Below the pieces are notes generated by a model that saw nothing but the letters and a program-made list of their open reading frames with translations, did not search any database and had not been told where the DNA came from. From the NCBI GenBank assembly GCA_002419295.1, contig DIFW01000017.1, positions 57,099 to 121,098 on the forward strand: DNA of 64,000 bases, read 5' to 3'. Below are positions 997-48,896 of the stretch, piece after piece. This stretch comes from Patescibacteria group bacterium UBA5738. Lineage in GTDB: Bacteria; Patescibacteriota; Minisyncoccia; Minisyncoccales; UBA5738. The translations under genes and the position numbers were made by a program. Numbering within the stretch: the first letter of the stretch is position 1; the number at the start of each line of letters is the position of its first letter.

Positions 997-2028
997 TTAT
1001 TCGTTTAATCTTTTATTGCGCATCAAATAATCCCTTACAAAGTCGTATAAAACACCAAACAAAGGAATCGCCAAAATCGCGCCGGCGACTCCCCAAATCG
1101 CTTTTCCGGCCAAAAGCGAGAGTAGCACCAATATCGCGGGAAACTCAATGAATTTCTTTGAAAGCAAGGGAATCACCAGATTGTTTTCCAATTGCTGGAT
1201 TATCGTGAAAATCGCAATCGCGGCCGCCGCCTTTTGCCACGAATCAAGCAACGCTACCAGCGCGATCACCGCGCCCGAAGCAATCGGGCCGATAAACGGC
1301 ACAATATCGGCCACTCCCGCGAAAAATCCCAGAAACACCGGATAGCGAATATCCAGCGCCCAGCATGCCAGCGAAGTGAACACCCCCACCGCCAGCATTC
1401 CCGCCAAACGCACCGCGAACCATCCCGAAATCTTCACTTGCGCCCTTCCCCACCAATCTAAAACGATTTTTTCCCGTTTGGCTGGAATGGCCAGCAAAAT
1501 AAATTTTTTAATGCCGGCGGCCTCCAAGGAGAAGAATGCCGCGGCGACGATTATGGTGAATGTCGTTAAAATGCCGCCAAACAATACGCCCAGCGACCCG
1601 ATAATTCCCGAAGACGCGCCCACCATCCAATCGCGGACCGCGGCGACAAACGCGTCCATGCTTTGGAAAATCACAAATCCCATTCCCGAAAGAAACGGCG
1701 ACACTTTTTCGAAATAAAGCGGGAACAACTGTCCCAATTGCTGGGTCTCAATGGCAAAAATCGGCGCGAGCCAATAAATTCCCGCCCCAAAAATTCCGAA
1801 AACGGAAAAATAAACCAAAAACACGGATGCCCCGCGCGGCACTTTCAATTTTTCCAAAAAGTCCACCGCCGGATTGAAAAGCACGGAAATAATCAACGCA
1901 AAAAGCGCCAGCGACAAAACCTCCCGCGCCAAATACAGCGCGTATCCCACCGCCAATGCCAAACCGATCTTTGCCAGCATTGCCCATGAAACATCAATTG
2001 TTTTTTTATCTCCGCCGATTGAAAACAT
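997..2028 (-). CDS. AI-2E family transporter (PerM/YhhT-like membrane protein)
   Basis: 343 aa polytopic membrane protein. C-terminal block DIVPFIGPIASGAVIAL...IIQQLENNLVIP matches the AI-2E/UPF0118 signature. Confidence 0.7.
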   Translation of the reverse strand: MFSIGGDKKTIDVSWAMLAKIGLALAVGYALYLAREVLSLALFALIISVLFNPAVDFLEKLKVPRGASVFLVYFSVFGIFGAGIYWLAPIFAIETQQLGQLFPLYFEKVSPFLSGMGFVIFQSMDAFVAAVRDWMVGASSGIIGSLGVLFGGILTTFTIIVAAAFFSLEAAGIKKFILLAIPAKREKIVLDWWGRAQVKISGWFAVRLAGMLAVGVFTSLACWALDIRYPVFLGFFAGVADIVPFIGPIASGAVIALVALLDSWQKAAAAIAIFTIIQQLENNLVIPLLSKKFIEFPAILVLLSLLAGKAIWGVAGAILAIPLFGVLYDFVRDYLMRNKRLNE

Positions 2029-2037
2029 ATTCTTTGA

Positions 2038-3309
2038 TTATAGCGCCTCTTCGAGTAAATCGCGAAACCTTGATTCGCCGCCATAAGGTCCGATCACCGC
2101 CAAATTCAACTTTTCGGGTTTGAAAATATCACGCGCCGCCTCTTGAATATCATCAACGGTCACTTGCTTTATTTTCTCATAGATTTCCTCAGGTTCCAAT
2201 ATCCGGCCTTCCAGCAATTCTTGCTCGCCGTAGAACAATCCTTTGGCATGGGACGATTCCAGCGCGATGGCGCTCCTGCCGGTGTAATTGTCTTTGGCCC
2301 GTTGCAATTCCGCCGCCGAAACTTGGCTGGCGCGAATTTTTTTAAATTCCCCCAAAATCACTTTGATGCCCTCATCCAGGCGATCGCTGTTTAAATTGGC
2401 CGTCGCCGCCAGTGAACCAGAGTCGGGATCCATTGACAATTCCGTGTGCACATCATAGACCAGCCCACGCTTGAATCTCACCTCTTCCATCAAGCGGGAA
2501 GAAAACATTCCCCCCAAAACGGTTTCCAGCAATTCCAGCGCCCGGCGACGCGGATAACTGTAGTCAAACGCTCTTACCCCCAGTGCGATCTGCGTTTGAT
2601 TAGTGTCTTTTTTATAAATCAAAACCTGCGGCGTTTCCTGCTTTTCCGCCACAGCGGCTTTTTTTGCCGGATCTTTGGCGGCAAACCGCCCGAAATATTT
2701 TTTTGTCAATTTTTCAGCTTCATTTTCGTCAAAATTGCCGGAGACGCAAACAACTGTGTTTTGCGCCGCATAATTTTTGTCCCGGTATTCCAAAAGCCGG
2801 TCGCGGGAGATACCTTTAACCGTTTCAATCGTCCCGACGATGTCCCGCCCCGCCGGCTGGTCGCCGTAAAGCGCCTGGTTCCAAACCGTCCAAATATGAC
2901 GCATCGGGTGGTCATGAAACATATTGATTTCTTCAATGATCGTTCCCCGCTCTTTTTCAATTTCTTCGGCCGGCAAAACGGAGTTCAAAAAAATATCGGC
3001 GACCAAATCAAACGCCGCTTCAAATTTTTTGCTTTGCACCTTGGCGTAATAACCGGTCATCTCCTGCGAAGTAAACGCGTTGGCAACGCCGCCCAGCCCG
3101 TCAATTTCCGAAAAAACAGCCATTTCCGTCAAGCGCTTTTTGGTGCCCTTGAATTGCAAATGCTCCAGAAAATGGGAGATACCGCTGATCTCTTTGGTTT
3201 CGTATTTGGAACCCGTACCCACCAGCGTCAAAACCGTTACCGTATCGGTGTTCGCGGAGTTTACCGTGATCAGCCTCAACCCGTTGGGCAATGTTGTTTT
3301 TTTATACAT
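2038..3309 (-). CDS. M16 family zinc peptidase (insulinase/pitrilysin-like)
   Basis: 423 aa. Inverted zinc-binding HxxEH motif (HFLEH) near the N-terminus, followed by GTKK and an M16-type domain. Confidence 0.75.
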   Translation of the reverse strand: MYKKTTLPNGLRLITVNSANTDTVTVLTLVGTGSKYETKEISGISHFLEHLQFKGTKKRLTEMAVFSEIDGLGGVANAFTSQEMTGYYAKVQSKKFEAAFDLVADIFLNSVLPAEEIEKERGTIIEEINMFHDHPMRHIWTVWNQALYGDQPAGRDIVGTIETVKGISRDRLLEYRDKNYAAQNTVVCVSGNFDENEAEKLTKKYFGRFAAKDPAKKAAVAEKQETPQVLIYKKDTNQTQIALGVRAFDYSYPRRRALELLETVLGGMFSSRLMEEVRFKRGLVYDVHTELSMDPDSGSLAATANLNSDRLDEGIKVILGEFKKIRASQVSAAELQRAKDNYTGRSAIALESSHAKGLFYGEQELLEGRILEPEEIYEKIKQVTVDDIQEAARDIFKPEKLNLAVIGPYGGESRFRDLLEEAL

Positions 3310-3360
3310 ATAATTTACCGCTGAATAATTAACGAATGTATTACTTTAAAATTTTTACGC

Positions 3361-3915
3361 TTATTTTTCAAAACCGCCAATAACCCAGTCAAATTCACCC
3401 TGCCAGTTCCGGTTCGGACAATTCCATCCCGGGCTTGCCGGATGCGGCCGGCCGCTGGTTTCCATATCAATGATCCCCAAAACAAAGAATGCTCCTCTGG
3501 CCGCATCACAATTGGCATATCCGGCGCTGTAACGATGATAACAGTAACCATAACATCCGGTGCCGGATCCCCCTCTGGGGTCTGTCGGCACTTGTTTCAG
3601 CAACCCTGCCGTTTCCAACATGCCAATGAACGGGCTGTTATTGCCGTCATTACATGGCCCTTGGTCCCATCCGTCGCAACAAGCATCCGATGAAATCGGC
3701 GGGAACCCTCCGTATTGGACATTATACATCTGCAGTGCCAGCACAATTTGCCGCATATCACTCACCCGCCGCGCGTCGCGCGCTTTTGCACGGGTATCGG
3801 TCATCGCCACCAGCACCATCCCCGATAACACACCGATGATGGAAATCACCACCAAAAGTTCGATTAAAGTAAACCCGTTCTTGCTTGCCAAATTGGATTC
3901 AAAGGGAAAAATCAT
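3361..3915 (-). CDS. Type IV pilin-like protein (prepilin N-terminal cleavage/methylation domain), paralog 1
   Basis: Class III signal KNG|[25 protein letters not shown], then a KARDARR motif and a Cys-rich variable C-terminal domain. Confidence 0.8.
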
Positions 3916-3959
3916 CTCTCTTTTTAAAATTACCCGATAATCATTTTTCGTAATGAAAA

Positions 3960-4541
3960 TTATTTTTGGCGCATCCCGACGGTGATCACGCCATAATTAA
4001 CACTGCTCGGATTGGTACTGCCATAATTAAAAAAATATCCGGACGGATAATCCGTACCGCTCACGGTGCAAGGACAAGTCCGTGTGCCGGGAGACGCCAT
4101 ATTCGGTTTTTCAAGGCGATAAGAAAGCATGTACCAATGCCCCGAACATCCGTAACCGGAAGCGTAATAGGCATAAAGATAGGTGCTGGTCGTTGTCCAC
4201 GGATAATTAACCGGATTGGTGATCGGAGTATTAACCGGGTCTGCGGGCAAACTGATATACGGCGCCAATTGCGTTTTAAAAGCGTTCCAATTAGTCTCAT
4301 TGTTGCTGATTGTCCAGCCTCTTACCGGATAGGTGCCCTTCTCCGCGTAATACAATTCCAGCGCCTTGCGGATTTGAGTGATGTCGTTAACCCTCCGCGC
4401 GTCCCGCGCTCTGGCACGCGCATCGGTCATCGCCACCAAAACCATCCCCGACAGCACGCCGATGATGGAAATCACCACCAGAAGCTCGATCAGAGTGAAG
4501 CCGTTCTTGCCCGGGTTTAATCTAGCAAAGAACTCCGGCAT
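3960..4541 (-). CDS. Type IV pilin-like protein, paralog 2 (start trimmed to [19 protein letters not shown])
   Basis: Same conserved prepilin N-terminus as paralog 1. About 150 nt near-identical to paralog 4. Confidence 0.8.
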
Positions 4542-4723
4542 TACAACTTGCCCCGCAATCACGCAAACCGCCGGTACCGGCAAATTTCATTTCTTGCAAG
4601 ACATATTAATTTTCTTTTTTGCATCCTTATCATAAAAATCCGGCTTATTATAAACACTCAATAAAACTAGTTTTTCTTGGAAATGAGAAAATCATAAAAC
4701 TCTCGCCGGATAATTACTTATGC

Positions 4724-5311
4724 TTATATTCCCAGATAACCGCATTGGCGGCAAGACCCGCCGGGAGGACAATGAATGGCAGATTTACCACTTTCCCAGG
4801 CCGCCCATTTCCACCCTAGACAATCATTGTCATTATTCGGAAATTTATCCGTTTGAAATGATAATTGATAAGCCCCATTGATAGTATTCACTGGCGACGG
4901 CAACCAATATGATCCGGGAGAGGCATAAATATATGTCCAATAAACGCGGCCAATGTCTCCGTATGACGGATCTTTAGGGATTTGCTTTAGATAAGTTACC
5001 AGCGCGGCATTGACGCTGTCGCTGCCATGCGGACCGCCGCCCCAACATTCTTCCGTGGAAGGTATCCCAAGACACACGATTTGCCCGCCCGTACCCGGAT
5101 ATGAACCGTGTTCGGCGGCATACATTTCTATCGCGGTTCTTATCTGCCGGATATCCGATACCCGCCGCGCGTCCCTTGCCTTTTCCCGAAACCCCGTCAT
5201 TGCCACCAACACCATCCCCGATAACACACCGATGATGGAAATCACCACCAAAAGTTCGATTAGGGTAAAACCTTTTTTGTTCGATTTTAGTTTGGCAAAA
5301 AAATCCGGCAT
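4724..5311 (-). CDS. Type IV pilin-like protein, paralog 3
   Basis: [39 protein letters not shown]..., with a divergent Cys-containing C-terminal domain. Confidence 0.8.
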   Translation of the reverse strand: MPDFFAKLKSNKKGFTLIELLVVISIIGVLSGMVLVAMTGFREKARDARRVSDIRQIRTAIEMYAAEHGSYPGTGGQIVCLGIPSTEECWGGGPHGSDSVNAALVTYLKQIPKDPSYGDIGRVYWTYIYASPGSYWLPSPVNTINGAYQLSFQTDKFPNNDNDCLGWKWAAWESGKSAIHCPPGGSCRQCGYLGI

Positions 5312-5321
5312 TATGCTTTAC

Positions 5322-5555
5322 TTAATGAATCATTTCCCCGGAAACATCGTAATTAACGGTTTGGTTTTTGGCGTTCTGCTGATAGAAATAATATCCCCAA
5401 AACGCGACGGTCAAAACCAGGCACACAATAATGATAACGATCTGAATTTTTTTCTTTTTCGCGCCCCGCTCCAAATCCGGCGGCGGGGCAATCTCGGTTT
5501 GCGGCTTGGCAGTATAATCGCTGAAATCAATGCCTTTATTTTGATTTGAGTCCAT
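5322..5555 (-). CDS. Small single-pass membrane protein, hypothetical, embedded in the pilin array
   Basis: 77 aa. Pro-rich N-terminus, one hydrophobic helix (IVIIIVCLVLTVAFWGYYFY). No recognisable family. Confidence 0.35.
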   Translation of the reverse strand: MDSNQNKGIDFSDYTAKPQTEIAPPPDLERGAKKKKIQIVIIIVCLVLTVAFWGYYFYQQNAKNQTVNYDVSGEMIH

Positions 5556-5566
5556 ATTTTTGAAAA

Positions 5567-6097
5567 TTATTTTTGCACCATACCAATAGTAAGAGTGCCG
5601 GAATAATTATAGGTGCCATTGGGACATTTTACCCCGGGAGATACAATACTACCCGGTTTTTCTATCCTGGCTAACAACATATACCAATGCCGGGTGAATG
5701 AAGCATCCGGGACATAAGTGCCCGTTCCCGTATAATAACTATAAGTATAAACATCGGCAGTATACGCATGTCCGGAAGAAGGCGCGTTGATCGGATCTTT
5801 GGGAAGGGCGATATAAGGCGCCAGCGGTGTCACCAGCGCTTGCCACGCGGCCGCGTCGTTGCTACTTCTCCACCCAATTGCATTAGGATAGATTGCGTTC
5901 TCCGCGTAATACAATTCCAGCGCCTTGCGGATTTGGGTAATATCGTTCACCCGCCGCGCGTCGCGCGCTCTGGCGCGCGTATCGGTCATCGCCACCAAAA
6001 CCATCCCCGACAGCGTGCCGATGATGGAAATCACCACCAGAAGTTCGATCAGAGTAAAACCATTGGATGGTTTTAACTTGGCAAAAAACTCAAACAT
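5567..6097 (-). CDS. Type IV pilin-like protein, paralog 4 (start trimmed to MFEFFAKLKPSNGFTLIE)
   Basis: Conserved prepilin N-terminus. 5' region nearly identical to paralog 2. Confidence 0.8.
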   Translation of the reverse strand: MFEFFAKLKPSNGFTLIELLVVISIIGTLSGMVLVAMTDTRARARDARRVNDITQIRKALELYYAENAIYPNAIGWRSSNDAAAWQALVTPLAPYIALPKDPINAPSSGHAYTADVYTYSYYTGTGTYVPDASFTRHWYMLLARIEKPGSIVSPGVKCPNGTYNYSGTLTIGMVQK

Positions 6098-6171
6098 TCG
6101 CCCTCGCCCCGCGGTCACGCAAAACCCGACTTCGCCGAATCCGGTTTCCCGCGGCACAAATTAACCTTTCT

Positions 6172-7563
6172 TCATCCCGAATATAACCCGCGCTTGACAT
6201 AATCGGCAAGCAAATTCATCTTCACGCGCGTCTGCGCCATAGTATCGCGATCGCGCACCGTGGCATCATCACCGGCAAGCGAATCAAAATCCACGGTAAT
6301 GCAATAGGGCGTGCCGATCTCGTCCTGGCGGCGATAGCGTTTGCCGATATTGCCAGAATCGTCAAACTCGCACATAAATTCCTCGCGCAACGCTTCATAG
6401 ACTTCCCGCGCTTTGGCGACAAGTTCGGGTTTGTTTTTCAACAACGGGAAAATTGCCGCTTTGATCGGCGCCAATCTCCGGTCAAACTTCATCACTGTGC
6501 GCGTCTCGCCGTTAACTTCCTCTTCGGCATAAGCTTTGTCCAAAAACATAAAAAACAGCCGGTTCAAACCCACGGAAGTTTCCATAATGTGGGGAATGAA
6601 TTTTTCGCCGCTTTGAGGATCGGCATAACTCAAGTCCTGCCCGGAAAATTTGGAATGCTGGCTCAAATCCCAATCGCCGCGCGCGTGGATGCCCTCCACT
6701 TCCTTGTATCCGCCCAGCGCCTTGAAATTATATTCAATGTCATACGCTTCGGAAGCATAATGCGCCAATTTTTCATGCTTGTACCAGCGGATATCGCTTT
6801 CATCCATCCCATAATTCAAATACCAGTTCCAACGAGTTTGCTTCCAATCATTATATTTTTCTTTCATCATCGACGGATGCAAAAAATACTGCATCTCCAT
6901 CTGTTCAAACTCGCGCGTGCGGAAAATAAACTGCCGCGCCACGATCTCGTTGCGAAACGCCTTGCCTACTTGCGCGATACCGAACGGCAATTTCACTCTG
7001 GCGGTATCCAGCGTGTTTTTATATTCCAAATAGATGCCGCCGCAGGTTTCCGGCCGCAAATAAACCACATTTTCTTCGCTCAACGCGTCGGTGGGAGAGC
7101 CCAGATTGGATTTGACCATCAATGAAAATCTTTTTGCCGCGGTTAAATCCGTCGATCCGCAATTGGCGCATTTGAGTTTTTTTTCGCTCCGCAGTTTGTC
7201 CAATTCGGCATTAAGAAATTCCAGCGGCTGTTTGTCCGCCGACACTCCGAATTGCTCCAGAATATGATCGGCGCGCCAGCGGGCTTTGCATTTTTTGCAA
7301 TCAACTTGCGGATCATCAAAACTGTCCACATGCCCGGAAGCGAGCCATGTCGTCGGATGCATAAAAATCGCGCTGTCCAAACCCACAACATCGTCGCGCA
7401 ACTGCACCATATGCCGCCACCACGCGTCGCGAATGTTGTTTTTCAAGAGCGTACCGTAATGGCCATAGTCATAAATCGCGGCAAACCCTCCATATATTTC
7501 CGAGGACGGAAAAACGAATCCCCTTCTTTTGGCCAACGAGATGATATTTTGCAAATAATCCAT
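6172..7563 (-). CDS. glyQS: Glycyl-tRNA synthetase (homodimeric alpha2 type)
   Basis: 463 aa. N-terminus GFVFPSSEIYGGFAAIYDYGHYG and class II aaRS motifs typical of GlyRS. Confidence 0.85.
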   Translation of the reverse strand: MDYLQNIISLAKRRGFVFPSSEIYGGFAAIYDYGHYGTLLKNNIRDAWWRHMVQLRDDVVGLDSAIFMHPTTWLASGHVDSFDDPQVDCKKCKARWRADHILEQFGVSADKQPLEFLNAELDKLRSEKKLKCANCGSTDLTAAKRFSLMVKSNLGSPTDALSEENVVYLRPETCGGIYLEYKNTLDTARVKLPFGIAQVGKAFRNEIVARQFIFRTREFEQMEMQYFLHPSMMKEKYNDWKQTRWNWYLNYGMDESDIRWYKHEKLAHYASEAYDIEYNFKALGGYKEVEGIHARGDWDLSQHSKFSGQDLSYADPQSGEKFIPHIMETSVGLNRLFFMFLDKAYAEEEVNGETRTVMKFDRRLAPIKAAIFPLLKNKPELVAKAREVYEALREEFMCEFDDSGNIGKRYRRQDEIGTPYCITVDFDSLAGDDATVRDRDTMAQTRVKMNLLADYVKRGLYSG

Positions 7564-7592
7564 ATTTCAAATGAAAAATTTAAATAGATTTT

Positions 7593-9272
7593 CTAATTTG
7601 TTTTTGGCTGGACGATGCCGCTGTTTTCAACCAGCGCCGGATCGGAAAGCGAGGCTGTGTCAATGGCAGGGGCGATTGATTCCAGCGGAATACCAGTCCA
7701 ACCGTCATTGCCTTTTATCACCGCTTGGCCGATGATCCCGGCGGTGCCGCCGATCTGGGAATTCATCGGCGTTACCGCCACTTGAAATGAAATGTTAAGC
7801 GGATTGGAAACCAGCCCTTGTCCCGCCGACATATCGCCGATGGTCCAAACGATTTCCCGGGTCGTTTGATCATATGCCAATTTTTCGGCTTGATTCTCGG
7901 GAAAAATCTTGCCGGCGGCCAATTGCGCCTCCGGCGGCAAAACCGCGCGCGCGCTCACCGCGCCGACATTCGAATAATAATTTTTCACTTGCCATGTAAC
8001 CGTATAGGTTGTCGGCGCGCCGGCCTGAGGCGGCAAAGGCCCAGTATTGCCGAATATCTCATCGCCATAGAACGCCTTTTGCGTTAATTCCAATTTGGAG
8101 CTGATTTTGGTGGTGAATTCCTCGCGCGCCGGACCGATCATTATCTTGTTGGTAAGTTCCGGCCGATTCAAACGGCTCAAATCGTCTTTCAGCTTCACCC
8201 AGAATTCCGCTTTTCCTTCGTCCATCACCGGCAGATAGGCCAACCCGTTGTTCTGCCGCCAGTCGAATACCAGCGAATTGTTGCCGGTTTGGAAATTACC
8301 GGTTTCTGATTTTATCGTCGTCAAATCATACAAATCACCTTCCAGATTATCGATTAAGACCAGATTATAAAGCTCGCTGTCGCTCACATTTTTATAATAA
8401 ATCTCGTAATGCAACCACTCTCCCGGCTTGGCGGTGTAATTGGCGTCGCCGTTGATGGTTTGCCGCAACGCGACCGTGGGCTTGACGATTTTGGTGCCTT
8501 TTTCAATTTCTTTCAACTGCATATACTGGCCGTCTTTCCAAATACCGATGCGCGCCCGAAAAACCTTTCCTTCGTTCAAAGACCCGGAAAGCCGTCCGGA
8601 GACATCAATCGTACCCGACTGGTTTTTATTCAATACCGGCACCACCCATTCGTCTTTATCGAAAGATTCCGGCGTTGAATGCGAAAATGAATACCCCGCG
8701 GGATAGTCCATATTGACGCGCAAATCGGTGAGAAGCCAATCCACATTGGAAAAATAATTTATCTTGAAGCGAAAATCTTTGTCGGCCTCCACGGTGGAAG
8801 CAATATCCATATCCAAATCCAAAGGCACCTCTTTCATTATTGTGGTAAATGTCGTCGCCGACTCAAAGCGCGCGCTCAAATTTTTCGGCTGGTAGGAAAG
8901 CACCGCGCTTGCCACTCTGGCATCGCCGGCTTTTCCCACCACGCGAAATTTGAAAGTGAAGCTTTTTTCTTCTCCGGGATAAATCGCGCCGCCCAGCTTT
9001 TCGGATTCAAGCACTTCTTTGGCAAAGATTTTATCGTCTTTAACCGAAAAATCCGGCGCCGTAAAAATCAGATTGGGATTTTCCAGCCGGAATTCGCCGT
9101 TGTTTTTGTACTTCACCACATATTCCACTTCCTGCCCCAAAACCGCTTCGCGGGGACCGAAAATTTCCAATTTCAATTCTTCTTTCGAGTAAATGTTTTT
9201 GCGCCAAAAACCATAACCCACGGCGGCAATCACTAAAACAAAAACGATTAAAATTTTAACAAATTTGCTCAT
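7593..9272 (-). CDS. Membrane-anchored DUF11-type (conserved repeat domain) surface protein
   Basis: 559 aa. N-terminal TM helix, then repeated beta-rich modules (GQEVEYVVKYKNNG..., GEWLHYEIYYKNVSDS...) that resemble DUF11/CARDB-like repeats. Confidence 0.5.
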   Translation of the reverse strand: MSKFVKILIVFVLVIAAVGYGFWRKNIYSKEELKLEIFGPREAVLGQEVEYVVKYKNNGEFRLENPNLIFTAPDFSVKDDKIFAKEVLESEKLGGAIYPGEEKSFTFKFRVVGKAGDARVASAVLSYQPKNLSARFESATTFTTIMKEVPLDLDMDIASTVEADKDFRFKINYFSNVDWLLTDLRVNMDYPAGYSFSHSTPESFDKDEWVVPVLNKNQSGTIDVSGRLSGSLNEGKVFRARIGIWKDGQYMQLKEIEKGTKIVKPTVALRQTINGDANYTAKPGEWLHYEIYYKNVSDSELYNLVLIDNLEGDLYDLTTIKSETGNFQTGNNSLVFDWRQNNGLAYLPVMDEGKAEFWVKLKDDLSRLNRPELTNKIMIGPAREEFTTKISSKLELTQKAFYGDEIFGNTGPLPPQAGAPTTYTVTWQVKNYYSNVGAVSARAVLPPEAQLAAGKIFPENQAEKLAYDQTTREIVWTIGDMSAGQGLVSNPLNISFQVAVTPMNSQIGGTAGIIGQAVIKGNDGWTGIPLESIAPAIDTASLSDPALVENSGIVQPKTN

Positions 9273-9848: not shown

Positions 9849-10892
9849 TTAAAAAATTGCAAACAGTTTAGACAAAAACAAGGCATACAAAAGGACATAA
9901 AGCCAACCCTGCCCGGAATTTATTCTGCGCGAAAATCCCGAAACTGTCAACAGCGCGGCGGCGGCGGCAAGAAACGGCAACGATATATCCAAAACCGCGC
10001 CATCAACCGGCAGAGGTGAAAACATCGCGGCAATACCGGCCACCAGCAATAAATTCACCGCGACGCCGGAAAAGACATTCCCCAAGGCCAATTCATATCT
10101 TTTTTTGGCGATCACCGCGAAGCTCCCCCACAATTCGGGCATTGCCGCAAAAATCGCCAGCGCCGAAACCGCCAAAATCGAAGCGGAAACCGGCAATAAA
10201 TCCGCGGTTCCGGCAAGCGATTCAATCGTGAAATTTGCCGCGATCGCCAGCAAAAGCACACCGCCCAGCCCAAGAAAAACCGCGGCGGGAAAATCCTTGG
10301 CGCGGCGGTTAAACCCGCGGCTGAATCGCGCCCCCACCATTTCGACTATGCCCGGAGTACTGCCGAATATCGACGGCGTCACGACATCCCGCGGCGTAAA
10401 TTTGCGGACGCGCCCATGTGAAATTAAAAATACGGCGCAAGCCGAAAACGCGGCCAGCATCAGCAACCCTTCGCCGAAAACAATGATTCCATCAATGGCG
10501 CAAAAACAAAATATCGCCGCGGCGGCTACCAGAAGCGGCGCGTCGGCATCCGTACATTCGCGATTGATCGGCAAATTTTTGGCCGCGATCGCGGACGCGC
10601 CCGCCACCAGCAAGATATTGGCGATCGACGAACCCAAAAGAACCGGCAAGACCAACTCCGGCCGGCCGGTTAAAACGGCGGCAAGGGCCAGCGCCAATTC
10701 GGGCAGAGCCGCGCCAATGGCAATCGCCGCGAATCCCGCCGCGACATCTTTGCTGAAAAACCGCGCGGCGGCGGCGGAAAACAACGCGGCGCCTTGCAAC
10801 AGCGCGACCACCGAAACGATAAATATGAATAGCCAAATAAAAATTTCCACGGACAAAATTGAAAATGTAAATATCAAAATGGAAAATGACAA
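9849..10892 (-). CDS. Ca2+/cation antiporter, CaCA family (YrbG-like)
   Basis: 347 aa polytopic protein with two alpha-repeat motifs (GAALPEL... and AAMPELWGS...GNVFSG..NLLLVAG). Confidence 0.55.
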   Translation of the reverse strand: MSFSILIFTFSILSVEIFIWLFIFIVSVVALLQGAALFSAAAARFFSKDVAAGFAAIAIGAALPELALALAAVLTGRPELVLPVLLGSSIANILLVAGASAIAAKNLPINRECTDADAPLLVAAAAIFCFCAIDGIIVFGEGLLMLAAFSACAVFLISHGRVRKFTPRDVVTPSIFGSTPGIVEMVGARFSRGFNRRAKDFPAAVFLGLGGVLLLAIAANFTIESLAGTADLLPVSASILAVSALAIFAAMPELWGSFAVIAKKRYELALGNVFSGVAVNLLLVAGIAAMFSPLPVDGAVLDISLPFLAAAAALLTVSGFSRRINSGQGWLYVLLYALFLSKLFAIF

Positions 10893-10995
10893 TGTAAAAT
10901 TACAAAATGTCCAGCTCCCGACATTTTAACATTTTAATCTGTCATTTTGATCTTTCCGCCAAAGGACGGATGCGCCTTATGCGCAGATTTTTCAT
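10869..10995 (+). repeat. Intergenic repeat, copy A (19-mer aaatatcaaaatggaaaat ... ttccgccaaaggacggATGcgcct..agattttt)
   Basis: Two conserved blocks with the same spacing (about 80 nt) recur at 32289..32410. Block 2 contains an SD-like AAAGGA, an ATG and an MRL[MV]RRF start. Confidence 0.6.
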
Positions 10996-11014
10996 TTTTA
11001 CATTTATTGTTAGT

Positions 11015-14000
11015 TTAGCATTTTTTTATCCCCAGCCAAATAGGCTGTCCCGCGATCTTGGCATCAACCGCCGCCGCGGTTTTGTCCGGTTTTTTAAACT
11101 CTAAATCGGCCGCTTTGGTTTCTTTGGCGATTATGAGTCGATTTTTTTCAATCACAACCCTCAATTCGCCTTCGGCAACGCAATAAACGGCAATTTTATC
11201 CGCCGGAGTAAATTTGGCGGTCTTGCGCAATTCCTGGATTTGGCGCATAGTTTCGCGGACACTGCCTTCCTCTTTCAATTCGGGCGTGATGTTCCAATCA
11301 ATTTCAACCGGCACTTTCAATTCCGAATTGAATTCAATGGTTTTCACATTTACTTCGCCGGCCAGAAGATCGCGCAATTCGCCGCTCAATCCGCCCGCGC
11401 CGGCGATAACCAGCTTTGCCAGCGGCTGGCGCACCTTCACGCCGCGCTTGGCGCGTTCGGCCAAAACCAGCGCACAAACCTTGCGCGCCCGCTCCATTTG
11501 CGCTTCCAATTTCGCGTCAATCATTTTTTTATCCGCCTCCGGATATGCTTCCAAATGCGCGGATTTCGCGTTGGCAAAATCGTTCCCCGACAAATCTTGC
11601 CAAATCTCTTCGGCCAAAAACGGCGCCAGCGGCGCGCAAACTTTGGCAAATTCGGCCAAAACATAAGCGAAGATTTTTGCCGCTTGGTTCAATCTCGCCG
11701 CGCTTTGCGGATGTTGCAAGCGCTTGCGCGAACGGCGCACATACCAAAGCGACAGATCGTCAATGGCAAACTTTTCCGCGGTTCTTGCCGCGCGGGTGAT
11801 ATCATAAGCGTCAAGACCGGCGGCGATTTTCGCAATCTCTGAATGCAAGCGCGACACAATCCAGCGGTCAAGCACATCCGCCGGCGCGACAGACACGGGA
11901 GCTTTGATTTTCGGCGCGTAAGTTTTCAAGAATATATGGCAATTCCGCAAAGTCATCAAAAACTTATTCTTTGCCAGCGCCAAATCTTTTTCGTTGTACA
12001 GCTTGGAATCCCCCGGATCATTGACGGTGTAAAAATACCACCGCACCGCGTCGGCGCCGTATTTTTCCACCATCTCCCATGGATTCACCACATTGCCTTT
12101 TGATTTGGACATTTTTTCGCCTTTCTCGTCCAACACATGCCCCATTGACACCACATTTTTATAGGGCGCGCCGAATTTCAGCGCCGTGGACAGCGCCAAC
12201 AAAGTGTAAAACCACCCTCTCGTTTGATCAATCGCCTCGCAAATGAAATCCGCGGGAAAAGCCGCCGGCGGCAAATCTTGCGACTGGCCCTTTTGTCGAG
12301 GCCAAAATTCTTGTGCAAACGGCATCGCCCCCGAATCCAGCCAGCAATCCAAAACCTCGGCGGCGCGCGCCATTCTTTGCCCGCATTTTTCGCAAATCGG
12401 CGCGACTTCGTCGATAAACGGGCGATGCAGGTCGATTTCCATGTCATCGCCAAACGGCAATTGCTTAAATTCAATTTCACGGGACTTGCCGGTATCGATT
12501 TTTTTGATTTTGCCCCGATAACGGCCGTCCAAAATTGCCGGCGCGGACATCCCTTTGAGCGTGTGCTCCAACATCGTCAGCGGCAATTCGTGGGATACCA
12601 AAACAATATTTTTACCTTCGTATTTTTTATCAATCTCGGCCATTAATTCATACATCCGGCGGCGAATCATCACCAAACTTTCGCCTTTGGGAGGTTTGGC
12701 GGCGAGAGGATTTTTTTTTGTTGATATGTAATCCCAAAAATTCTTGGGGTCTTGGCCGTTGAAAATTCCCACATTGGCTTCGCGCAATCTTTTGTCATAG
12801 ATGATTTTGGCGCCGGTGGTTTTTGCGATGATTTGCGCCGTTTCTTTCGTCCGCAACAAATCCGAGGCGATAATCAAATCTATTTTTTCTTTGGCCAGTT
12901 TTTTTGCCGAAACCTCCGCTTGTTTTCCGCCTTTTTGAGTGAGCGGCAACGGATCGGCCTCCGGCCAGCAAGAAGCGATTTTTTTAACTTGCCGTTGAGA
13001 GTGGCCGTGGCGAAAAACAAAATATCGGTTCTTTGAATATTTTTGTTCGAGCAAATCGCGGACCGAACCAAAAACTTCCCGATGGCCGCAATCGCATTGC
13101 CACACCGGCAGAGGCGTGCCCCAGTAGCGGTCGCGCGAAATCGCCCAATCTTTCACTTCGCGCAACCATTCGCCAAACCGCCCTTCTTTCAAATGCGGCG
13201 GCACCCAATTTATCTTTTGGTTGTTTTTGAGCAAATCATTTCTCAACGCCGTCATTTTGATAAACCAGCTCTTTTTGGCATAGTACAGCAATGGTGTTTT
13301 GCACCGCCAGCAAAACGGATAATCGTGTTCATACGCTTCGGTTTTAAAAAGCAATCCCTTTTCTTTTAAATCGGCGATGATCAAGGAATCGGCATCCTTG
13401 ACAAACATCCCCGCCCATTTGGGAACATCCGGCAAAAAACCGCCGTCTTCGCCGACATTCAAAATCACGGGGAATACCGGCGCGCCGTTTTTTTCCCGTT
13501 GGCGGTTTTCTTTTTTGATCACTTCCATATCTTCGGCGCCGAACGCCGGCGCGATATGGACAATTCCCGTACCGTCAACCGCCGACACAAAGTCCGCAGC
13601 AATCGTCTCGTAAATGATTTTTGATTCTTCGGTTTTGACCGGAAACGGCGCCCGATACCGCAATCCGATCAAGCTATTGCCTTTTATATCTCGGACAATT
13701 TCGTATTCGCCGCCCAAAACTTCAACGCGGTCTTTGGCCAAAACCAAACCGCCGCTCTCTCCGTTTCTTGGCTTCGCCAACACATAATCCAGCGCCGGAT
13801 TCACCGCGGCGGCAACATTGGCCGGCAATGTCCACGGCGTAGTGGTCCAAACCAACAGCGCAGCATTTTTAAATTCCGGACTAACAAGGGGAAATTTGAC
13901 ATACACCGAAGGGTCTTTCACTCTTTTGTAGCCCTGCGCCACTTCATGGCTGGATAGCGCCGTACCGCAACGCGAGCAGTAGGGCAAAACTTTGTAATCT

Positions 14001-14506
14001 TGAAACAAAAGCTTTTTTTGCCACGCGCGCTTCAAAATAAACCACACCGACTCCATATACCGCGCGTCATAGGTGATATAAGGATTGTCCAAATCCAGCC
14101 AATAGCCGATACGCTCGGTAAGTTTGCGCCATTCGCCAATCTGCTCAAAAACCGAATCGCGGCATTCTTTATTGAATTTTTTAATGCCGTATTTTTCGAT
14201 GTCTTTTTTGCTGTGAAGGCTAAGTTTTTTCTCAATTTGCAATTCCACCGGCAACCCGTGCGTATCCCATCCGGCGCGGCGCCGGACGCGAAACCCCGCC
14301 ATAGTCTTGTAGCGGCAAATTAAATCTTTGAAGACCCGCGTTTCCATATGGTGTATCCCCGGGCGCGCGTTGGCCGTGGGCGGCCCCTCATAAAACACAA
14401 AATCCTTTTTGCGCCGAGGCGTTCTTTTGACCGATTTTTCAAAAATCAAGTTCTCTTTCCAAAACTTGACGATATTTTCCTCATTTTTGTTGAAATCCTT
14501 CTCCAT
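11015..14506 (-). CDS. ileS: Isoleucyl-tRNA synthetase with an embedded histidine-phosphatase (PGAM-like) domain
   Basis: 1163 aa. HIGH-type PGIHH, editing-domain motif GTGIVHIAPAFGAED, WAISRDRYWGTPLP and KMSKSKGNVV. A block of about 190 aa inserted between WAISRDR...CDCGH and IDLHRPFIDE carries RHGHS and LVSHE motifs. Confidence 0.9.
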   Translation of the reverse strand: MEKDFNKNEENIVKFWKENLIFEKSVKRTPRRKKDFVFYEGPPTANARPGIHHMETRVFKDLICRYKTMAGFRVRRRAGWDTHGLPVELQIEKKLSLHSKKDIEKYGIKKFNKECRDSVFEQIGEWRKLTERIGYWLDLDNPYITYDARYMESVWFILKRAWQKKLLFQDYKVLPYCSRCGTALSSHEVAQGYKRVKDPSVYVKFPLVSPEFKNAALLVWTTTPWTLPANVAAAVNPALDYVLAKPRNGESGGLVLAKDRVEVLGGEYEIVRDIKGNSLIGLRYRAPFPVKTEESKIIYETIAADFVSAVDGTGIVHIAPAFGAEDMEVIKKENRQREKNGAPVFPVILNVGEDGGFLPDVPKWAGMFVKDADSLIIADLKEKGLLFKTEAYEHDYPFCWRCKTPLLYYAKKSWFIKMTALRNDLLKNNQKINWVPPHLKEGRFGEWLREVKDWAISRDRYWGTPLPVWQCDCGHREVFGSVRDLLEQKYSKNRYFVFRHGHSQRQVKKIASCWPEADPLPLTQKGGKQAEVSAKKLAKEKIDLIIASDLLRTKETAQIIAKTTGAKIIYDKRLREANVGIFNGQDPKNFWDYISTKKNPLAAKPPKGESLVMIRRRMYELMAEIDKKYEGKNIVLVSHELPLTMLEHTLKGMSAPAILDGRYRGKIKKIDTGKSREIEFKQLPFGDDMEIDLHRPFIDEVAPICEKCGQRMARAAEVLDCWLDSGAMPFAQEFWPRQKGQSQDLPPAAFPADFICEAIDQTRGWFYTLLALSTALKFGAPYKNVVSMGHVLDEKGEKMSKSKGNVVNPWEMVEKYGADAVRWYFYTVNDPGDSKLYNEKDLALAKNKFLMTLRNCHIFLKTYAPKIKAPVSVAPADVLDRWIVSRLHSEIAKIAAGLDAYDITRAARTAEKFAIDDLSLWYVRRSRKRLQHPQSAARLNQAAKIFAYVLAEFAKVCAPLAPFLAEEIWQDLSGNDFANAKSAHLEAYPEADKKMIDAKLEAQMERARKVCALVLAERAKRGVKVRQPLAKLVIAGAGGLSGELRDLLAGEVNVKTIEFNSELKVPVEIDWNITPELKEEGSVRETMRQIQELRKTAKFTPADKIAVYCVAEGELRVVIEKNRLIIAKETKAADLEFKKPDKTAAAVDAKIAGQPIWLGIKKC

Positions 14507-25982: not shown

Positions 25983-26351
25983 TTATTTGAGAATATTCCT
26001 CACTTTTTCGATAATCTCGCCGGGAGTAAAGTGCGCCTTAATCAAGTAATCCACGGCCCCCAAGCTTAATCCCTTGTCCACATCTTCTTTCTGTCCCAAA
26101 TTTGACAGGATGACTACCGGAATTGACGCGGTGAACGGATCTTCTCTTTTTTGAGTTAGAACTTCAAATCCGTCGATGCCGGGCAAAATCAAATCCAAAA
26201 GCACCAATTCGGGATGGCCTTCTTTTATCTGGAGCAACCCTTGCTCCCCGTCAACCGCCTCCAACACATCATAGCCTTCGTTTGACAATTTTTTGACGAT
26301 CAATTCCCGCAGAAATTTATCGTCTTCCACAATAAGAATTTTTCTTGGCAT
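25983..26351 (-). CDS. Single-domain response regulator (CheY-like receiver only)
   Basis: KILIVEDDKFLREL...VLLDLILPGIDGFEVL...VVILSNLGQKED...GAVDYLIKA is a receiver domain with no output domain. Start at MPRKIL. Confidence 0.75.
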   Translation of the reverse strand: MPRKILIVEDDKFLRELIVKKLSNEGYDVLEAVDGEQGLLQIKEGHPELVLLDLILPGIDGFEVLTQKREDPFTASIPVVILSNLGQKEDVDKGLSLGAVDYLIKAHFTPGEIIEKVRNILK

Positions 26352-26367
26352 AGGTAATAAAAACAAA

Positions 26368-26736
26368 CTATTCCCCGATGTATTTTTGAATTTTATCAGC
26401 CACCTCTTTGGGATCAAACTCCGTCTTAACCAGCCAATCGGCCGCTCCCAGTTCTTTTGCTCTTTCCAGCTCAAGCGGCTGGCCGGAATTGGAAATGATG
26501 ATCACCGGTATTTTCGCGAGCTTTTCATCTTTTTTCATCTCCGCCATCACCTCAAACCCGCCCATGCGCGGCATCACGATATCAAGCAAAACCAAATCGG
26601 GCATATTCTCCCTCATTTTCTCAATTCCTTCCTGGCCGTTCATCGCCAACGCCACATCATAACCGGCGGCATCAAGCTTTTTGCTCAAAAGCTTGATGAT
26701 CAATTCCTCGTCTTCGATTAGTAAAATTTTTTTCAT
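26368..26736 (-). CDS. Single-domain response regulator (CheY-like receiver only)
   Basis: MKKILLIEDEELIIKLL...DLVLLDIVMPRMGGFEV...VIIISNSGQ...GAADWLVK. Start trimmed to MKKILL. Confidence 0.75.
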   Translation of the reverse strand: MKKILLIEDEELIIKLLSKKLDAAGYDVALAMNGQEGIEKMRENMPDLVLLDIVMPRMGGFEVMAEMKKDEKLAKIPVIIISNSGQPLELERAKELGAADWLVKTEFDPKEVADKIQKYIGE

Positions 26737-26779: not shown

Positions 26780-28189
26780 TCAAGCCTCAATCAGCGGATC
26801 TGGGGCGGGCGGCAAAGTAAAAGAAAACGCGGTTCCTTCGTCTTTTTTGGAAACAAAGCCGATACTGCCGCCGTGGGTTTCCACAATATTCTTCGCGATA
26901 AAAAGCCCCAGCCCGGTACCTTCGGTTTCCGCTTTGATCGCGTTGGCTCCGCGAAAATATTTGGTAAAAACCCGATTTTGCTGCTCTTCGGGAATGCCTA
27001 TCCCGGTATCTTTCACCTCAAGAAAAACCATCCCCTCTTCTTCACCGAGAGTAACAAAAATATTGCCGCCGGCAGGCGTGTATTTCAACGCGTTTTCAAT
27101 TAGATTTGAAATCACCAGCTTGATTTTTTCAAGGTCCACTTTCACCGGAGGAATAATCGGCGAAATTTTCTCAAAATTTAATTTCAATTTCTTTTGCCGG
27201 GCGATATCTTCATAATTCGCCATTAAGCCGGCGACAACCTCTTCCATATCCGCAATCGTCAAAGTGTAAAGATGGCGGCCTTCTTCAATACGCGTCACAT
27301 TCAACAGATCATTGATCAAGTTGATCATCCTTTCGTTCGATTTGTATGTCTTGTCTAAAAATTCTTCCTGCTCTTCGTTGATCGGTCCCAAATCGCCGTC
27401 CAAAATCATCCGCAGTGTCCATTTAATCGCCGAAATCGGCGTGCGCAACTGGTGTGCGGCGATGGAAACAAATTCGGTTTTCATTTTTTCCACCATTTTT
27501 TCACGGCTGATATCATGCACGAGCAAAATCGTACCGATTTTTCCGGCGTGCCCGGCAACCTCCAAAACGCTTACTTCAAAAACATTTTTTTCATCCAAAA
27601 ATAATTCTTTGCGCGAGATATTCGCCAAGCCGTCGCCCATCAGCTTTCCCAGCAATTTAAGCTTGGGCGCGCGAAAACATTCGGCAATGCTTTGCCCGGT
27701 CATATTTTTGCTTTCTATGCGGGTAATGCCAAAAAAAGATTCCATTCGGGGATTAATCAGCGCCAACCGGTCGTGATGGTCAAAAAACATCAGTCCGTCC
27801 GCCAGAGCGGTGATTATCGCCAAAGTTTTTTCCTTTTCTTCTTCGGCCCGGCGGCGCAAATCTTCCATATCTTCAAGCATATTCATCAGCGCCATGCGGG
27901 AATTCTCCGATTCTTCCACTTTTTGCCGCAATTCTTGGGTGCGCGCCTTCACCTCCTCCTCCAACCCCGAAGCAAGGTCCCGCAACGCTTTTGTCTTCGC
28001 ATTGACTCTTATTTCTAAAATATTTTTGGCTTCTTCCAATTGAGATTTGACCTCGTTGAGTTCGCGAATTTCATCGGCGCGGGAAGGCAAAACCGGCTCC
28101 GATTCGTTGCCGGAACCTTTCGCGCCGCTTGGGAACACCGCCTTTTCGGGGCGCGGAATATTGTTTTTATCAATTAACGGCTGGTTCAT
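26780..28189 (-). CDS. Cytoplasmic sensor histidine kinase portion (coiled-coil, PAS-like, HisKA, HATPase)
   Basis: 469 aa. H-box AAHQLRTPISAIKW, N/G1/G2 ATPase boxes (LIENALKYT, DTGIGIP, GTGLGL). The N-terminus is a coiled coil with RTxEL repeats and no TM segment. Confidence 0.8.
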   Translation of the reverse strand: MNQPLIDKNNIPRPEKAVFPSGAKGSGNESEPVLPSRADEIRELNEVKSQLEEAKNILEIRVNAKTKALRDLASGLEEEVKARTQELRQKVEESENSRMALMNMLEDMEDLRRRAEEEKEKTLAIITALADGLMFFDHHDRLALINPRMESFFGITRIESKNMTGQSIAECFRAPKLKLLGKLMGDGLANISRKELFLDEKNVFEVSVLEVAGHAGKIGTILLVHDISREKMVEKMKTEFVSIAAHQLRTPISAIKWTLRMILDGDLGPINEEQEEFLDKTYKSNERMINLINDLLNVTRIEEGRHLYTLTIADMEEVVAGLMANYEDIARQKKLKLNFEKISPIIPPVKVDLEKIKLVISNLIENALKYTPAGGNIFVTLGEEEGMVFLEVKDTGIGIPEEQQNRVFTKYFRGANAIKAETEGTGLGLFIAKNIVETHGGSIGFVSKKDEGTAFSFTLPPAPDPLIEA

Positions 28190-38123: not shown

Positions 38124-38130
38124 AAAACAA

Positions 38131-42939: not shown

Positions 42940-43001
42940 ATTTGGCAAAAAAAACGGCGGCCCGATCAAAGGCGGCCGTTTTTTGTTTGGCGGGATGTGG
43001 A

Positions 43002-44990: not shown

Positions 44991-45008
44991 GTTCCAATTT
45001 TTGGTTTT

Positions 45009-45656: not shown

Positions 45657-45668
45657 ATTTTAAATTTT

Positions 45669-46633: not shown

Positions 46634-46636
46634 TTT

Positions 46637-48895: not shown

Positions 48896-48896
48896 G

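Follow-up and report, generated by a model that had tools for sequence, protein, structure and literature searches.

The locus described here raises a question about how its genes evolve. Four type IV pilin genes stand in tandem in a Patescibacteria (CPR) genome, and their 5' ends resemble each other at the nucleotide level. Does this likeness only reflect what a pilin N-terminus must encode, or do these genes exchange DNA with one another? We analysed the window, that is, the whole stretch of 64,000 nucleotides. Our reading, to which we give a probability of about 0.8, is that it contains a modular, recombination-active type IV pilin locus.

Layout of the array

The array consists of four complete type IV prepilin genes and the gene of a 77-aa membrane protein. 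All lie on the minus strand, and GlyRS and an M16 peptidase flank them. The other neighbours are a DUF11-like surface protein, a Na/Ca exchanger, an AI-2E transporter and a methylase. The four paralogous pilin ORFs previously placed at 3361-3915, 3960-4583, 4724-5311 and 5567-6157 were recovered, as was the 77-aa ORF inside the array at 5322-5555. In order of transcription, the genes are as follows.

5567..6097, minus strand: pilin a, first gene of the array, 176 aa counted from the ATG (the ORF reaches up to GTG 6157), 1 Cys
5322..5555, minus strand: orf77, small single-pass membrane protein, 77 aa
4724..5311, minus strand: pilin b, 195 aa, 6 Cys
3960..4541, minus strand: pilin c, 193 aa counted from the ATG (the ORF reaches up to TTG 4583), 3 Cys
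3361..3915, minus strand: pilin d, last gene of the array, 184 aa, 8 Cys

All four pilin copies are full-length, each with a start codon and a signal, and no silent copy is present in the window. The gap is 10 nt between orf77 and pilin b and 44 nt between pilins c and d. Pilin c is the closest paralog of pilin a.

For comparison we used five or six related arrays (five of them syntenic), which represent few independent Patescibacteria lineages. In every one of them orf77 directly follows the first-position pilin (a, a second allele a*, or an unrelated type e). Its product had no family match in profile searches. It is kept as 77-81 aa in the window, L089, L092, L093, L096 and L099, with pN/pS of 0.18-0.52. 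Pilin b has an ortholog in L089, and its body is 100% identical in L099. Pilin d is the type most widely conserved across Patescibacteria, with at least 120 clusters among the matches listed (53-100% identical) and a body pN/pS of 0.11-0.19.

Pilins a and c most likely start at ATG 6097 and ATG 4541, with leaders of 12-13 aa. The longer leaders, from GTG 6157 and TTG 4583, were rejected. In L093 the upstream stretch has a 1-nt deletion and a TTG start at the same position, so the sequence upstream of the two ATG codons appears to be non-coding. It forms two homologous elements.

6098..6166, minus strand: conserved non-coding leader upstream of a, whose predicted hairpin ends immediately before the start codon
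4542..4610, minus strand: homologous non-coding leader upstream of c, with a similar predicted hairpin

Pilin b is without a leader element of its own, and both b and d come right after an a- or c-type gene. The array would comprise two transcription units, a-orf77-b and c-d. At the head of each stands an a/c-type gene with the conserved 5' leader hairpin. An Rfam scan of 3200-6400 returned nothing, even at E <= 5, and over the whole window it found only six tRNAs. Promoter-like sites (9 versus 5.1 +/- 2.5 in shuffles) and terminator-like sites (7 versus 4.0 +/- 2.1) were not in excess. They were not used as evidence.

The four genes encode type IV prepilins

All four proteins score above the cutoffs of PF07963 N_methyl (30.5-36.8 bits; cutoff 21.2) and TIGR02532 (27.5-34.5 bits; cutoff 16.3). 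Each carries the signal ...(K/N/S)(N/K)G|FTLIELLVV, with the Gly(-1), Phe(+1) and Glu(+5) of class III signals. Outside these four proteins, no class III signal was found in the 64-kb window. The AF2 models of pilin c (pLDDT 87.5) and pilin d (pLDDT 80.0) are lollipop folds, with a helix at residues 17-68 and a beta sheet of 3-5 strands. Profile searches matched solved structures of Geobacter PilA (2e-17), GspG (6.6e-13), Thermus PilA and Neisseria PilE, overall at about 1e-17 to 1e-5. The top PDB matches of Foldseek are also pilins, below significance (E >= 0.04). Pilins a, b, c and d are all prepilins of the type IV pilin superfamily. The disulfide-bonded C-terminal D-region typical of T4a major pilins is impossible in pilin a, which has a single Cys.

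Two more specific assignments, the T2SS major pseudopilin GspG and a T2SS pseudopilin operon, were rejected. TIGR01710 scores are 43-52 bits versus an equivalog cutoff of 88.85, PF08334 scores are 16.8-20.3 versus a cutoff of 21, and there are no Gsp genes nearby.

The absence of adjacent assembly genes, remarked in the earlier note, was borne out: PilC, PilD and PilM were not found among the window ORFs scanned. The assembly ATPase of the window, at 30950-32278 as had been said, is a GspE/PilB-like T2SSE protein (PF00437, 1.1e-112) that scores below the NCBIfam equivalog cutoffs.

A 5' cassette with homogenised synonymous sites

The four genes have a 5' cassette of about 120 nt in common, and their 3' bodies are unrelated. 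A repeat search found one direct family of four copies, with spacings of 626, 770 and 789 nt.

5942..6061, minus strand: 5' cassette of a, 120 nt from the Gly(-1) codon, encoding 40 residues
5153..5272, minus strand: 5' cassette of b, with a 53-nt exact match to the cassette of d
4383..4502, minus strand: 5' cassette of c, left arm of a 626-nt deletion in L099 and L103
3757..3876, minus strand: 5' cassette of d, right arm of the same deletion

The longest exact matches are 22-53 nt between cassettes, against 8-10 nt between gene bodies. The lowest of these values, 22 nt, is that of c and d. The earlier note had reported shared 5' DNA, 85-90% identical over about 110 nt. The sharing is real, but the identity is not uniform. 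Measured from the Gly(-1) codon, pairwise identity is 85-94% over 78 nt, 77-92% over 110 nt and 75-91% over 120 nt. The second and fourth paralogs (c and a) had been described as alike almost exactly over about 150 nt. This was too strong: they are 91.6% identical over 167 nt, with 14 mismatches and a longest exact run of 38 nt.

We also compared the use of codons. At identical residues of the cassette, the same codon occurs in 16-28 of 32-36 cases, versus 11-12 expected from codon usage (z 1.9-5.6). In the gene bodies, five of the six comparisons are at expectation (z -0.6 to 1.2), and the exception is a-b (z 2.3). Identity confined to what the amino acids demand, with saturated synonymous sites, had been named as the observation that would speak for old paralogs without exchange. 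We found instead an excess of same-codon use, confined to the cassette. Synonymous sites are homogenised in the cassette only.

Other genomes help to read this excess. Among orthologs in sister species, synonymous sites of the cassette differ with pS of 0.29-0.67 (0.20 in the close pair L092-L093). Another CPR genome has an unlinked pilin with the same 24 N-terminal residues and only 6-7 of 24 codons in common. The cassette codons therefore appear not to be constrained. Two tandem pilins of that same genome are 97-100% identical over the first 120 nt and 95% over nt 121-180.

Concerted evolution of the cassettes within genomes

We compared p-distances within and between the related arrays. Over cassette nt 1-78 the distance is 0.074 for paralogs of the same genome, 0.116 for orthologs and 0.119 for non-orthologs. 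Conversely, over nt 121-180 the orthologs are closer (0.177) than the paralogs (0.428). In the permutation test, 27 of 5000 replicates counted for the cassette (p about 0.005, which is not overwhelming) and 4382 of 5000 for the downstream part. Ortholog cassettes differ by 7.5-27.5%, with most pairs of the window and another genome at 16-28%.

Moreover, all paralogs of one genome have states in common that are specific to that genome. They occur at columns 15, 21, 33 and 34 in the window. All paralogs of L089 have a synonymous TTG at column 49, and all those of L092 have RERA. These comparisons of sequence show concerted evolution of the cassettes within a genome, with orthology intact just downstream.

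Strain L004 has one SNP in pilin b (GAA to GCA), which is the codon of d. We rejected it as a micro-conversion, a single site being too little for such a call. The differences of L005 gather near the end of the contig, in the M16 gene, and have nothing to do with the array.

Modules are shuffled, deleted and replaced among relatives

The gene orders of the window and three related arrays are as follows.

Window: a-77-b-c-d
L089: c-b-a2-81-d
L092: a-81-c2-d
L093: e-80-c-d, where e has an unrelated body

Gene number (2-4), order and content vary among close relatives, and one position is occupied by a, a*, e or a remnant. Every boundary between the blocks of the window and L089 falls inside a cassette. 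The remnant is a 5'-truncated e-type fragment in L099, the sole truncated remnant among the relatives. The flanks are also mosaic: L092 and L093 are 97.6% identical in GlyRS and only 70.7% in the M16 gene.

Two relatives carry fusions. In L099 (a 300-kb JGI contig) and L103, the upstream region and leader of c are joined to the body of d, and one 626-nt unit is missing. Pilin c was apparently lost from both by deletion. In principle, such chimeras on metagenomic contigs might be misassemblies. We regard this as unlikely here, because c and d share only 22 nt exactly and the fusions of the two datasets cross over at different places in the cassette.

The first gene of the array has a second allele.

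5438..6298, minus strand: a/a* dimorphic tract, 126 differences with identical flanks; a* coexists in four metagenome datasets

In three ENA assemblies a* is carried by bubble contigs, whose ends are the first and last variant site plus or minus k. Of the 94 Ns of a JGI contig, 91 stand at a/a* differences. The two alleles have a pS of 0.05 in the N-terminal part (leader and cassette, up to ARDARR) and of 0.54 in the body. Since the body pS is 0.54, the divergence of the two bodies appears to be ancient and not a product of switching. The variation seen here lies between strains and lineages.

Between closely related strains, the variable outer domains are swapped, deleted and replaced, with the cassette as the crossover point. 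The earlier view of the array as a substrate for recombination holds. It is backed by synonymous sites homogenised only in the cassette, the position of all breakpoints between related arrays within cassettes, deletion chimeras in relatives and the coexisting second allele of gene a.

The range of the locus was also explored. In a GlyRS-anchored synteny search of GTDB species representatives (best identity 72%), none of 22 loci at 52-72% GlyRS identity had a pilin in the flanks. Two of four more distant CPR loci had one unrelated pilin upstream of GlyRS. On this basis, neither the source species nor its genus has a member in that set of representatives. A palindromic element seen at the array borders of L089 and L099 is absent from the window.

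A model for the locus

In our model, each gene joins a constant 5' cassette of about 120 nt to a variable body. The cassette encodes the last part of the class III signal, followed by the hydrophobic alpha-1 helix, which lies packed in the core of the filament. The body encodes the exposed globular domain. Homologous recombination among the direct-repeat cassettes, by gene conversion and unequal crossing-over, keeps them alike within a genome, as their concerted evolution shows. Through the same recombination the cassettes become the junctions at which modules are lost, change places or give way to diverged alleles of other lineages, as the comparisons between strains show. Such a module consists of a body, the spacer behind it and the leader of the next gene. 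The machinery is probably a general RecA-type pathway; the window has a RuvC gene, and there is no dedicated recombinase close to the array. The likely outcome is a diversified pilus surface with assembly compatibility kept, which may be relevant to attachment to a host or partner and to contact with phage or DNA.

Alternative explanations

The four genes might simply be an ordinary operon of major and minor pilins. The proteins would then be different parts of one pilus, and the recombination signals would be incidental. Several pilins per locus are normal in Saccharibacteria (PMC11623550). Core minor pilins are often strongly conserved, as pilin d is across Patescibacteria, and the placement of b and d directly behind a- or c-type genes also suits an operon. 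However, a fixed structural set would not usually vary as this locus does among close relatives, in gene number (2-4), order and content. Moreover, minor pilins are not typically known to have N-terminal DNA nearly identical to that of the major pilin. We consider this explanation rather unlikely as an alternative. The operon view is compatible with a recombination-active locus and does not exclude it.

The earlier note also offered antigenic variation or regulated pilin switching. Such a program would switch the expressed pilin within a clone, either from a donor-fed expression locus as in Neisseria or by an invertase or shufflon. A constant 5' part with a variable 3' part is the logic of these systems, the truncated e-type fragment of L099 resembles a silent copy, and two alleles coexist in the same samples. 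Nevertheless, the elements of a switch did not appear. We found no inverted-repeat pair of >=20 nt in 3300-6250, all cassettes being in direct orientation, no recombinase or invertase gene adjoining the array and no G4 motif (G3+N1-7 x4) on either strand of 2000-8000. Each of the four window copies is complete, the a/a* bodies diverged long ago, and independent assemblies of the window strain have one and the same gene order. This part of the earlier proposal was not upheld, and programmed high-frequency variation is improbable.

Selection on the 5' nucleotide sequence itself is very improbable. It could act through mRNA structure, translation pacing for membrane insertion or a regulatory site, and recombination would not be needed. 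Small hairpins did appear inside the cassettes in the terminator-like scan (e.g. TTGGTGGTGATTTCCATCATCGG), and similar hairpins are predicted for the 5' leaders of a and c. However, hairpin counts are no higher than in shuffled sequence. Such selection should also hold across species, yet ortholog cassettes diverge to the extent given above and each genome has its own shared variants. Chimeras, permuted modules and replaced alleles are left unexplained.

Finally, old independent paralogs, alike only where the signal and helix demand it, are hardly credible: the amino acids of the first ~40 mature residues are nearly invariant in thousands of pilins and the gene bodies are saturated (p-distance about 0.43), but the same-codon excess is limited to the cassette, the paralogs of a genome share its own synonymous and replacement states, orthologs diverge at these very sites, and the unlinked pilin with identical residues has saturated codons.

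Comparison with known systems

In the pilE/pilS system of Neisseria, RecA-dependent gene conversion draws on promoterless, 5'-truncated silent copies. The exchange takes place in the variable 3' region by way of short conserved blocks, with a G4 element as its trigger. The array described here is similar in its multiple pilin copies per genome, homologous non-reciprocal exchange, constant N-terminal and variable exposed parts, and coexisting population variants. It differs in that all copies are complete, the 5' cassette serves as the tract of homology, bodies move whole, as modules, and no G4 motif was found in 2000-8000.

Moraxella tfpQ/tfpI (Piv) and the R64 shufflon (Rci, acting on PilV C-terminal segments) rely on site-specific inversion, with inverted repeats and a dedicated recombinase. 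There too, one constant N-terminal pilin segment is combined with alternative C-terminal segments, and the junction is within the coding region. In contrast, our repeats are direct, with neither inverted repeats nor an adjacent recombinase gene.

Pilin allele islands are a third case. The pilA groups of Pseudomonas aeruginosa, with tfpO/tfpX/Y/Z, and the fimA classes of Dichelobacter nodosus have one pilin gene per strain. As in these islands, the array occupies a fixed site between housekeeping genes, and highly diverged alternative alleles are exchanged horizontally with a small accessory gene (here orf77). Unlike them, it has three to four tandem paralogs that also recombine with each other.

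Type IV pili are nearly universal in the Patescibacteria phylum, and their pilins have a T4a-like signal and a lollipop fold, with C-terminal domains that diversify (PMC11623550). The present pilins share these three features. Saccharibacteria and other Patescibacteria loci place sets of major and minor pilins beside assembly genes (PMC11623550), whereas the present array is isolated from them. The words 'tandem', 'recombination' and 'hypervariable' do not occur in the text of that paper.

Implications for Patescibacteria

The array may also be part of something wider. The 120-nt cassette could be a portable site of exchange, through which co-occurring Patescibacteria lineages draw on a common pool of pilin-body modules. 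Modules would be taken up as DNA, possibly by the pilus, and slotted between cassettes, and the a/a*/e polymorphism would be kept by frequency-dependent selection from hosts or phages. We hold this extension to be doubtful. If it were true, episymbionts would have here an equivalent of an integron or shufflon that works by homologous recombination and serves host-attachment specificity.

Short-read assemblies break at arrays of this kind, leaving bubble contigs and N-masked consensus. Pilin diversity in CPR MAGs is probably under-reported for this reason.

For Patescibacteria, attachment to other cells is a necessity, and the organelle of attachment and DNA uptake with the best support is the type IV pilus (PMC11623550). 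The locus provides a concrete, sequence-defined set of interchangeable pilin surface domains. A simple mechanism would vary these domains while the filament core stays constant, and natural populations hold alternative alleles. Existing metagenomes of hydrocarbon-degrading enrichments make it testable whether bodies track hosts, how fast modules turn over and whether selection acts on the variation.

The pilin array and its genes

The array contains four complete pilin genes on the minus strand, named a to d in transcription order. This confirms the array that the earlier note had described from the sequence, with a, b, c and d corresponding to its paralogs 4, 3, 2 and 1. All four pass the N-methylation signal profiles PF07963 and TIGR02532 above their cutoffs. 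Each has a leader peptide of 12-13 residues with a terminal Gly, followed by FTLIELLVV. A six-frame search of the whole 64 kb gave no class III signal beyond these four pilins.

Pilin array and its borders
7563-6172, minus: glycyl-tRNA synthetase (GlyRS), one border
6098-6166, minus: non-coding leader of a, predicted hairpin
6097-5567, minus: pilin a, 176 aa
5555-5322, minus: orf77, between pilins a and b
5311-4724, minus: pilin b, 195 aa
4542-4610, minus: non-coding leader of c, predicted hairpin
4541-3960, minus: pilin c, 193 aa
3915-3361, minus: pilin d, 184 aa
3309-2038, minus: M16 peptidase, other border

The AlphaFold2 models, made with family alignments, present pilins c and d as lollipops with a helix at 17-68 and a beta sheet (pLDDT 87.5 and 80.0, respectively). 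Among solved structures, the family profiles of c and d have matches to pilins and pseudopilins: Geobacter PilA (2e-17), GspG 5wda (6.6e-13, positions 11-110), Thermus PilA and Neisseria PilE. In Foldseek the top-ranked structures were pilins, at non-significant scores. Pilin d is the most conserved type, with 53-100% identity across Patescibacteria among the 120 clusters listed and a body pN/pS of 0.11-0.19. The a-type is the least conserved (body pN/pS 0.25-0.48).

The closest GlyRS sequences come from CPR MAGs (71-72% identity). The named pilin relatives belong to Minisyncoccales, Nealsonbacteria, Portnoybacteria and Paceibacterota. By sequence, the source organism is placed in Patescibacteria (CPR). 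The DNA of the window is also present in assemblies labelled hydrocarbon metagenome (PRJNA183510).

Cassette repeats and codon usage

The shared DNA is a cassette of ~120 nt that begins at the Gly(-1) codon. The four cassettes are direct repeats, spaced by 789, 770 and 626 nt. Any two of them are 85-94% identical over 78 nt, falling to 75-91% over 120 nt. Between a and c, ~90% is maintained for 170 nt (BLAST, 167 nt at 91.6%). The longest exact runs are 22-53 nt in the cassettes versus 8-10 nt in the bodies, the variable remainders of the genes.

Identity confined to what the protein demands was the result that the earlier note had set against recombination. We found an excess of shared codons instead. 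At cassette residues identical between two paralogs, the codon is the same in 16-28 of 32-36 cases, while the codon usage of the window predicts 11-12 (z 1.9-5.6). In the bodies, five of six gene pairs agree with the expected count (z -0.6 to 1.2), the exception being a-b (z 2.3).

A constraint at the codon level could also conserve these codons, and two controls exclude it. First, between orthologs of sister species the cassette pS is 0.29-0.67, as high as in the body; in the close pair of loci L092 and L093, it is 0.20. Second, the more distant CPR genome L100 has two tandem a/c-type pilins (6001-7086) and a third pilin 4 kb away (10832-11374). Its unlinked pilin has the identical first 24 residues, but only 6-7 of 24 codons in common with the tandem pair. 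Between the two tandem pilins, identity is 97-100% in the initial 120 nt and 95% in nt 121-180.

Concerted evolution of the cassette

In cassettes, orthology is erased and similarity is predicted by the genome of residence; downstream, the opposite holds. Over nt 1-78 the distances are 0.074 for paralogs of the same genome, 0.116 for orthologs and 0.119 for non-orthologs in other genomes. Over nt 121-180 they are 0.428, 0.177 and 0.416. Permutation of the genome labels within gene types gave 27/5000 for the cassette and 4382/5000 downstream.

Individual sites present the same pattern. All four window cassettes have ATC...CTT...ATTTCC (Ile-Ser), whereas the ten others have ATT...CT(G/A)...AT(C/T)GC(C/T) (Ile-Ala). 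A synonymous TTG is common to the four cassettes of locus L089. RERA occurs in the three copies of L092, and REKA or RARA in its close relative L093. The cassettes thus exchange sequence within genomes.

Related arrays and cassette junctions

A GlyRS-anchored search of GTDB representatives gave no synteny with the window. Related loci between GlyRS and M16 were recovered by exact-protein look-up of close pilin homologs.

Gene order between GlyRS and M16 (77, 81 and 80, orf77 and its counterparts; a2 and c2, a- and c-type pilins of relatives)
Window: a-77-b-c-d
L089, L090 and L091: c-b-a2-81-d
L092: a-81-c2-d
L093: e-80-c-d (e, unrelated Cys-rich body)

The nucleotide divergence of GlyRS is ~17% among the window, L089 and the L092/L093 pair. 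Within this pair, GlyRS is 97.6% identical and M16 only 70.7%, so a recombination boundary runs through the array. The flanking housekeeping genes are mosaics, and the entire neighbourhood is a hotspot for homologous exchange among lineages.

The BLAST blocks between the window and L089 terminate within cassettes. One of them spans the body of c, the spacer after it and the leader of the following gene; beyond it comes the body of d in the window, but that of b in L089. What moves as a unit is thus a body together with its 3' spacer and the leader that follows. L089 also has, upstream of a2, a relic of the GlyRS 3' end, which shows that c-b entered between GlyRS and a.

The 300-kb JGI contig L099 is identical to the window at 99.4% in isoleucyl-tRNA synthetase, 94.2% in GlyRS and 93.7% in AI-2E/methylase, with a more diverged M16. 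Along window positions 2000-7500, its identity alternates between 100% (bodies of b and d) and 66-82% (middle of M16).

In L099, the upstream region and leader of c are fused to a d body 100% identical to that of the window. The switch, no more than ~25 nt into the cassette, entails the loss of exactly one 626-nt unit. L103, from the same project and a different run, has the same type of fusion, with the switch at ~nt 110. Of the first-position pilin, L099 retains only an e-type fragment truncated at its 5' end; it lies behind an adjoining small palindromic element. This element (GGGTCTAnCCC...GGGnTAGACCC) occurs at array borders in L089 (7681-7714) and L099 (7556-7591 and 10960-10993), and is absent from the window. 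Where strains or species differ by deletion, permutation or replacement, the junctions lie in the cassettes.

A second allele of pilin a

In three ENA assemblies, a occurs together with a second allele, a*, on sibling contigs. The a* protein has 175 aa and is 78% identical to a. The alleles differ at 126 sites from window position 6298 to 5438 and are identical outside this tract. The contigs end at 6298 and 5438 plus or minus k (k = 141, k = 127), a de Bruijn bubble signature. A JGI contig of the locus has 96 isolated Ns; 91 of the 94 aligned Ns coincide with sites that differ between a and a*, and b, c and d contain none. The pS is 0.05 in leader and cassette versus 0.54 in the body (pN/pS 0.31). 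The body is as old as a species split, and the cassette in front of it bears the window-type variants (ISIIGV).

orf77, leaders and possible transcription units

orf77 is present in every related array, always directly after the first-position pilin, whichever its body. It encodes a single-pass membrane protein of 77-81 aa under purifying selection (pN/pS 0.18-0.52). Profile searches gave no family match. It may be an accessory factor of the pilins.

Every related array has a conserved non-coding leader of ~70 nt ahead of its a-, c- and e-type genes. The predicted hairpin of this leader has the 3' arm GCGGGGC, which stops ~8-10 nt short of the start codon. Four pairs have changes on both sides with pairing kept, and z is ~-1.4 with few independent sequences; this is modest support for the hairpin. 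Rfam gave no match. The leader may control translation or transcription. The b and d genes have no such leader, and the gap to the gene before them is 10-44 nt, which suggests two transcription units, a-orf77-b and c-d.

Other features of the window

Genes outside the array
25983-26474: response regulator, near the GspE/PilB-like ATPase
26780-28189: histidine kinase, near the GspE/PilB-like ATPase
28170-29411: 413-aa protein, faint match to a c-di-GMP phosphodiesterase response regulator
30950-32278: GspE/PilB-like ATPase
38131-39267: dnaN
39501-40859: dnaA
43002-44990: VirB4/TraG P-loop ATPase, type IV secretion cluster
45669-46310: PrgI-family protein, same cluster
50380-51630: T4SS-pilin-domain protein, same cluster
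52376-57966: several large proteins without Pfam match, same cluster

The regulatory genes near the GspE/PilB-like ATPase could have a link to pilus assembly. The GC content has a trough of 0.339 at 38-40 kb, and the GC skew changes sign in 38000-41000. The replication origin is probably here, ~33 kb away from the pilins. At ~43000-58000 there is a type IV secretion cluster that resembles conjugation systems, of a kind known from Patescibacteria (PMC12102498). The isoleucyl-tRNA synthetase (11015-14506, minus, 1163 aa) has a histidine phosphatase domain (PF00300 His_Phos_1) inserted between its tRNA-synt_1 segments. L089 and L092 have the same insertion.

Discussion

Concerted evolution of the cassettes, breakpoints within them, deletion fusions and the a/a* alleles support recombination, as the earlier note had proposed for this array. 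The direct repeats would recombine by the general homologous pathway. The window includes a RuvC gene. At the array we found no adjoining recombinase, inverted repeats or G4 motif.

The logic is similar to Neisseria pilE/pilS, the Piv inversion of Moraxella, the R64 shufflon, and the pilin allele islands with accessory genes of Pseudomonas and Dichelobacter. Unlike in all of these systems, every copy here is a complete gene in direct orientation, homology resides in the constant 5' region, and no dedicated recombinase or initiator was found. Type IV pili and diversifying pilin C-termini have been documented in Patescibacteria (PMC11623550). In the literature searched, we found no report of a tandem pilin cassette architecture or its recombination in this phylum.

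The benefit would be to vary the exposed pilin domain while the filament core stays constant. The a, c and e types are likely the main variable subunits. As L100 suggests, homogenised 5' ends of tandem pilins may be widespread across the phylum.
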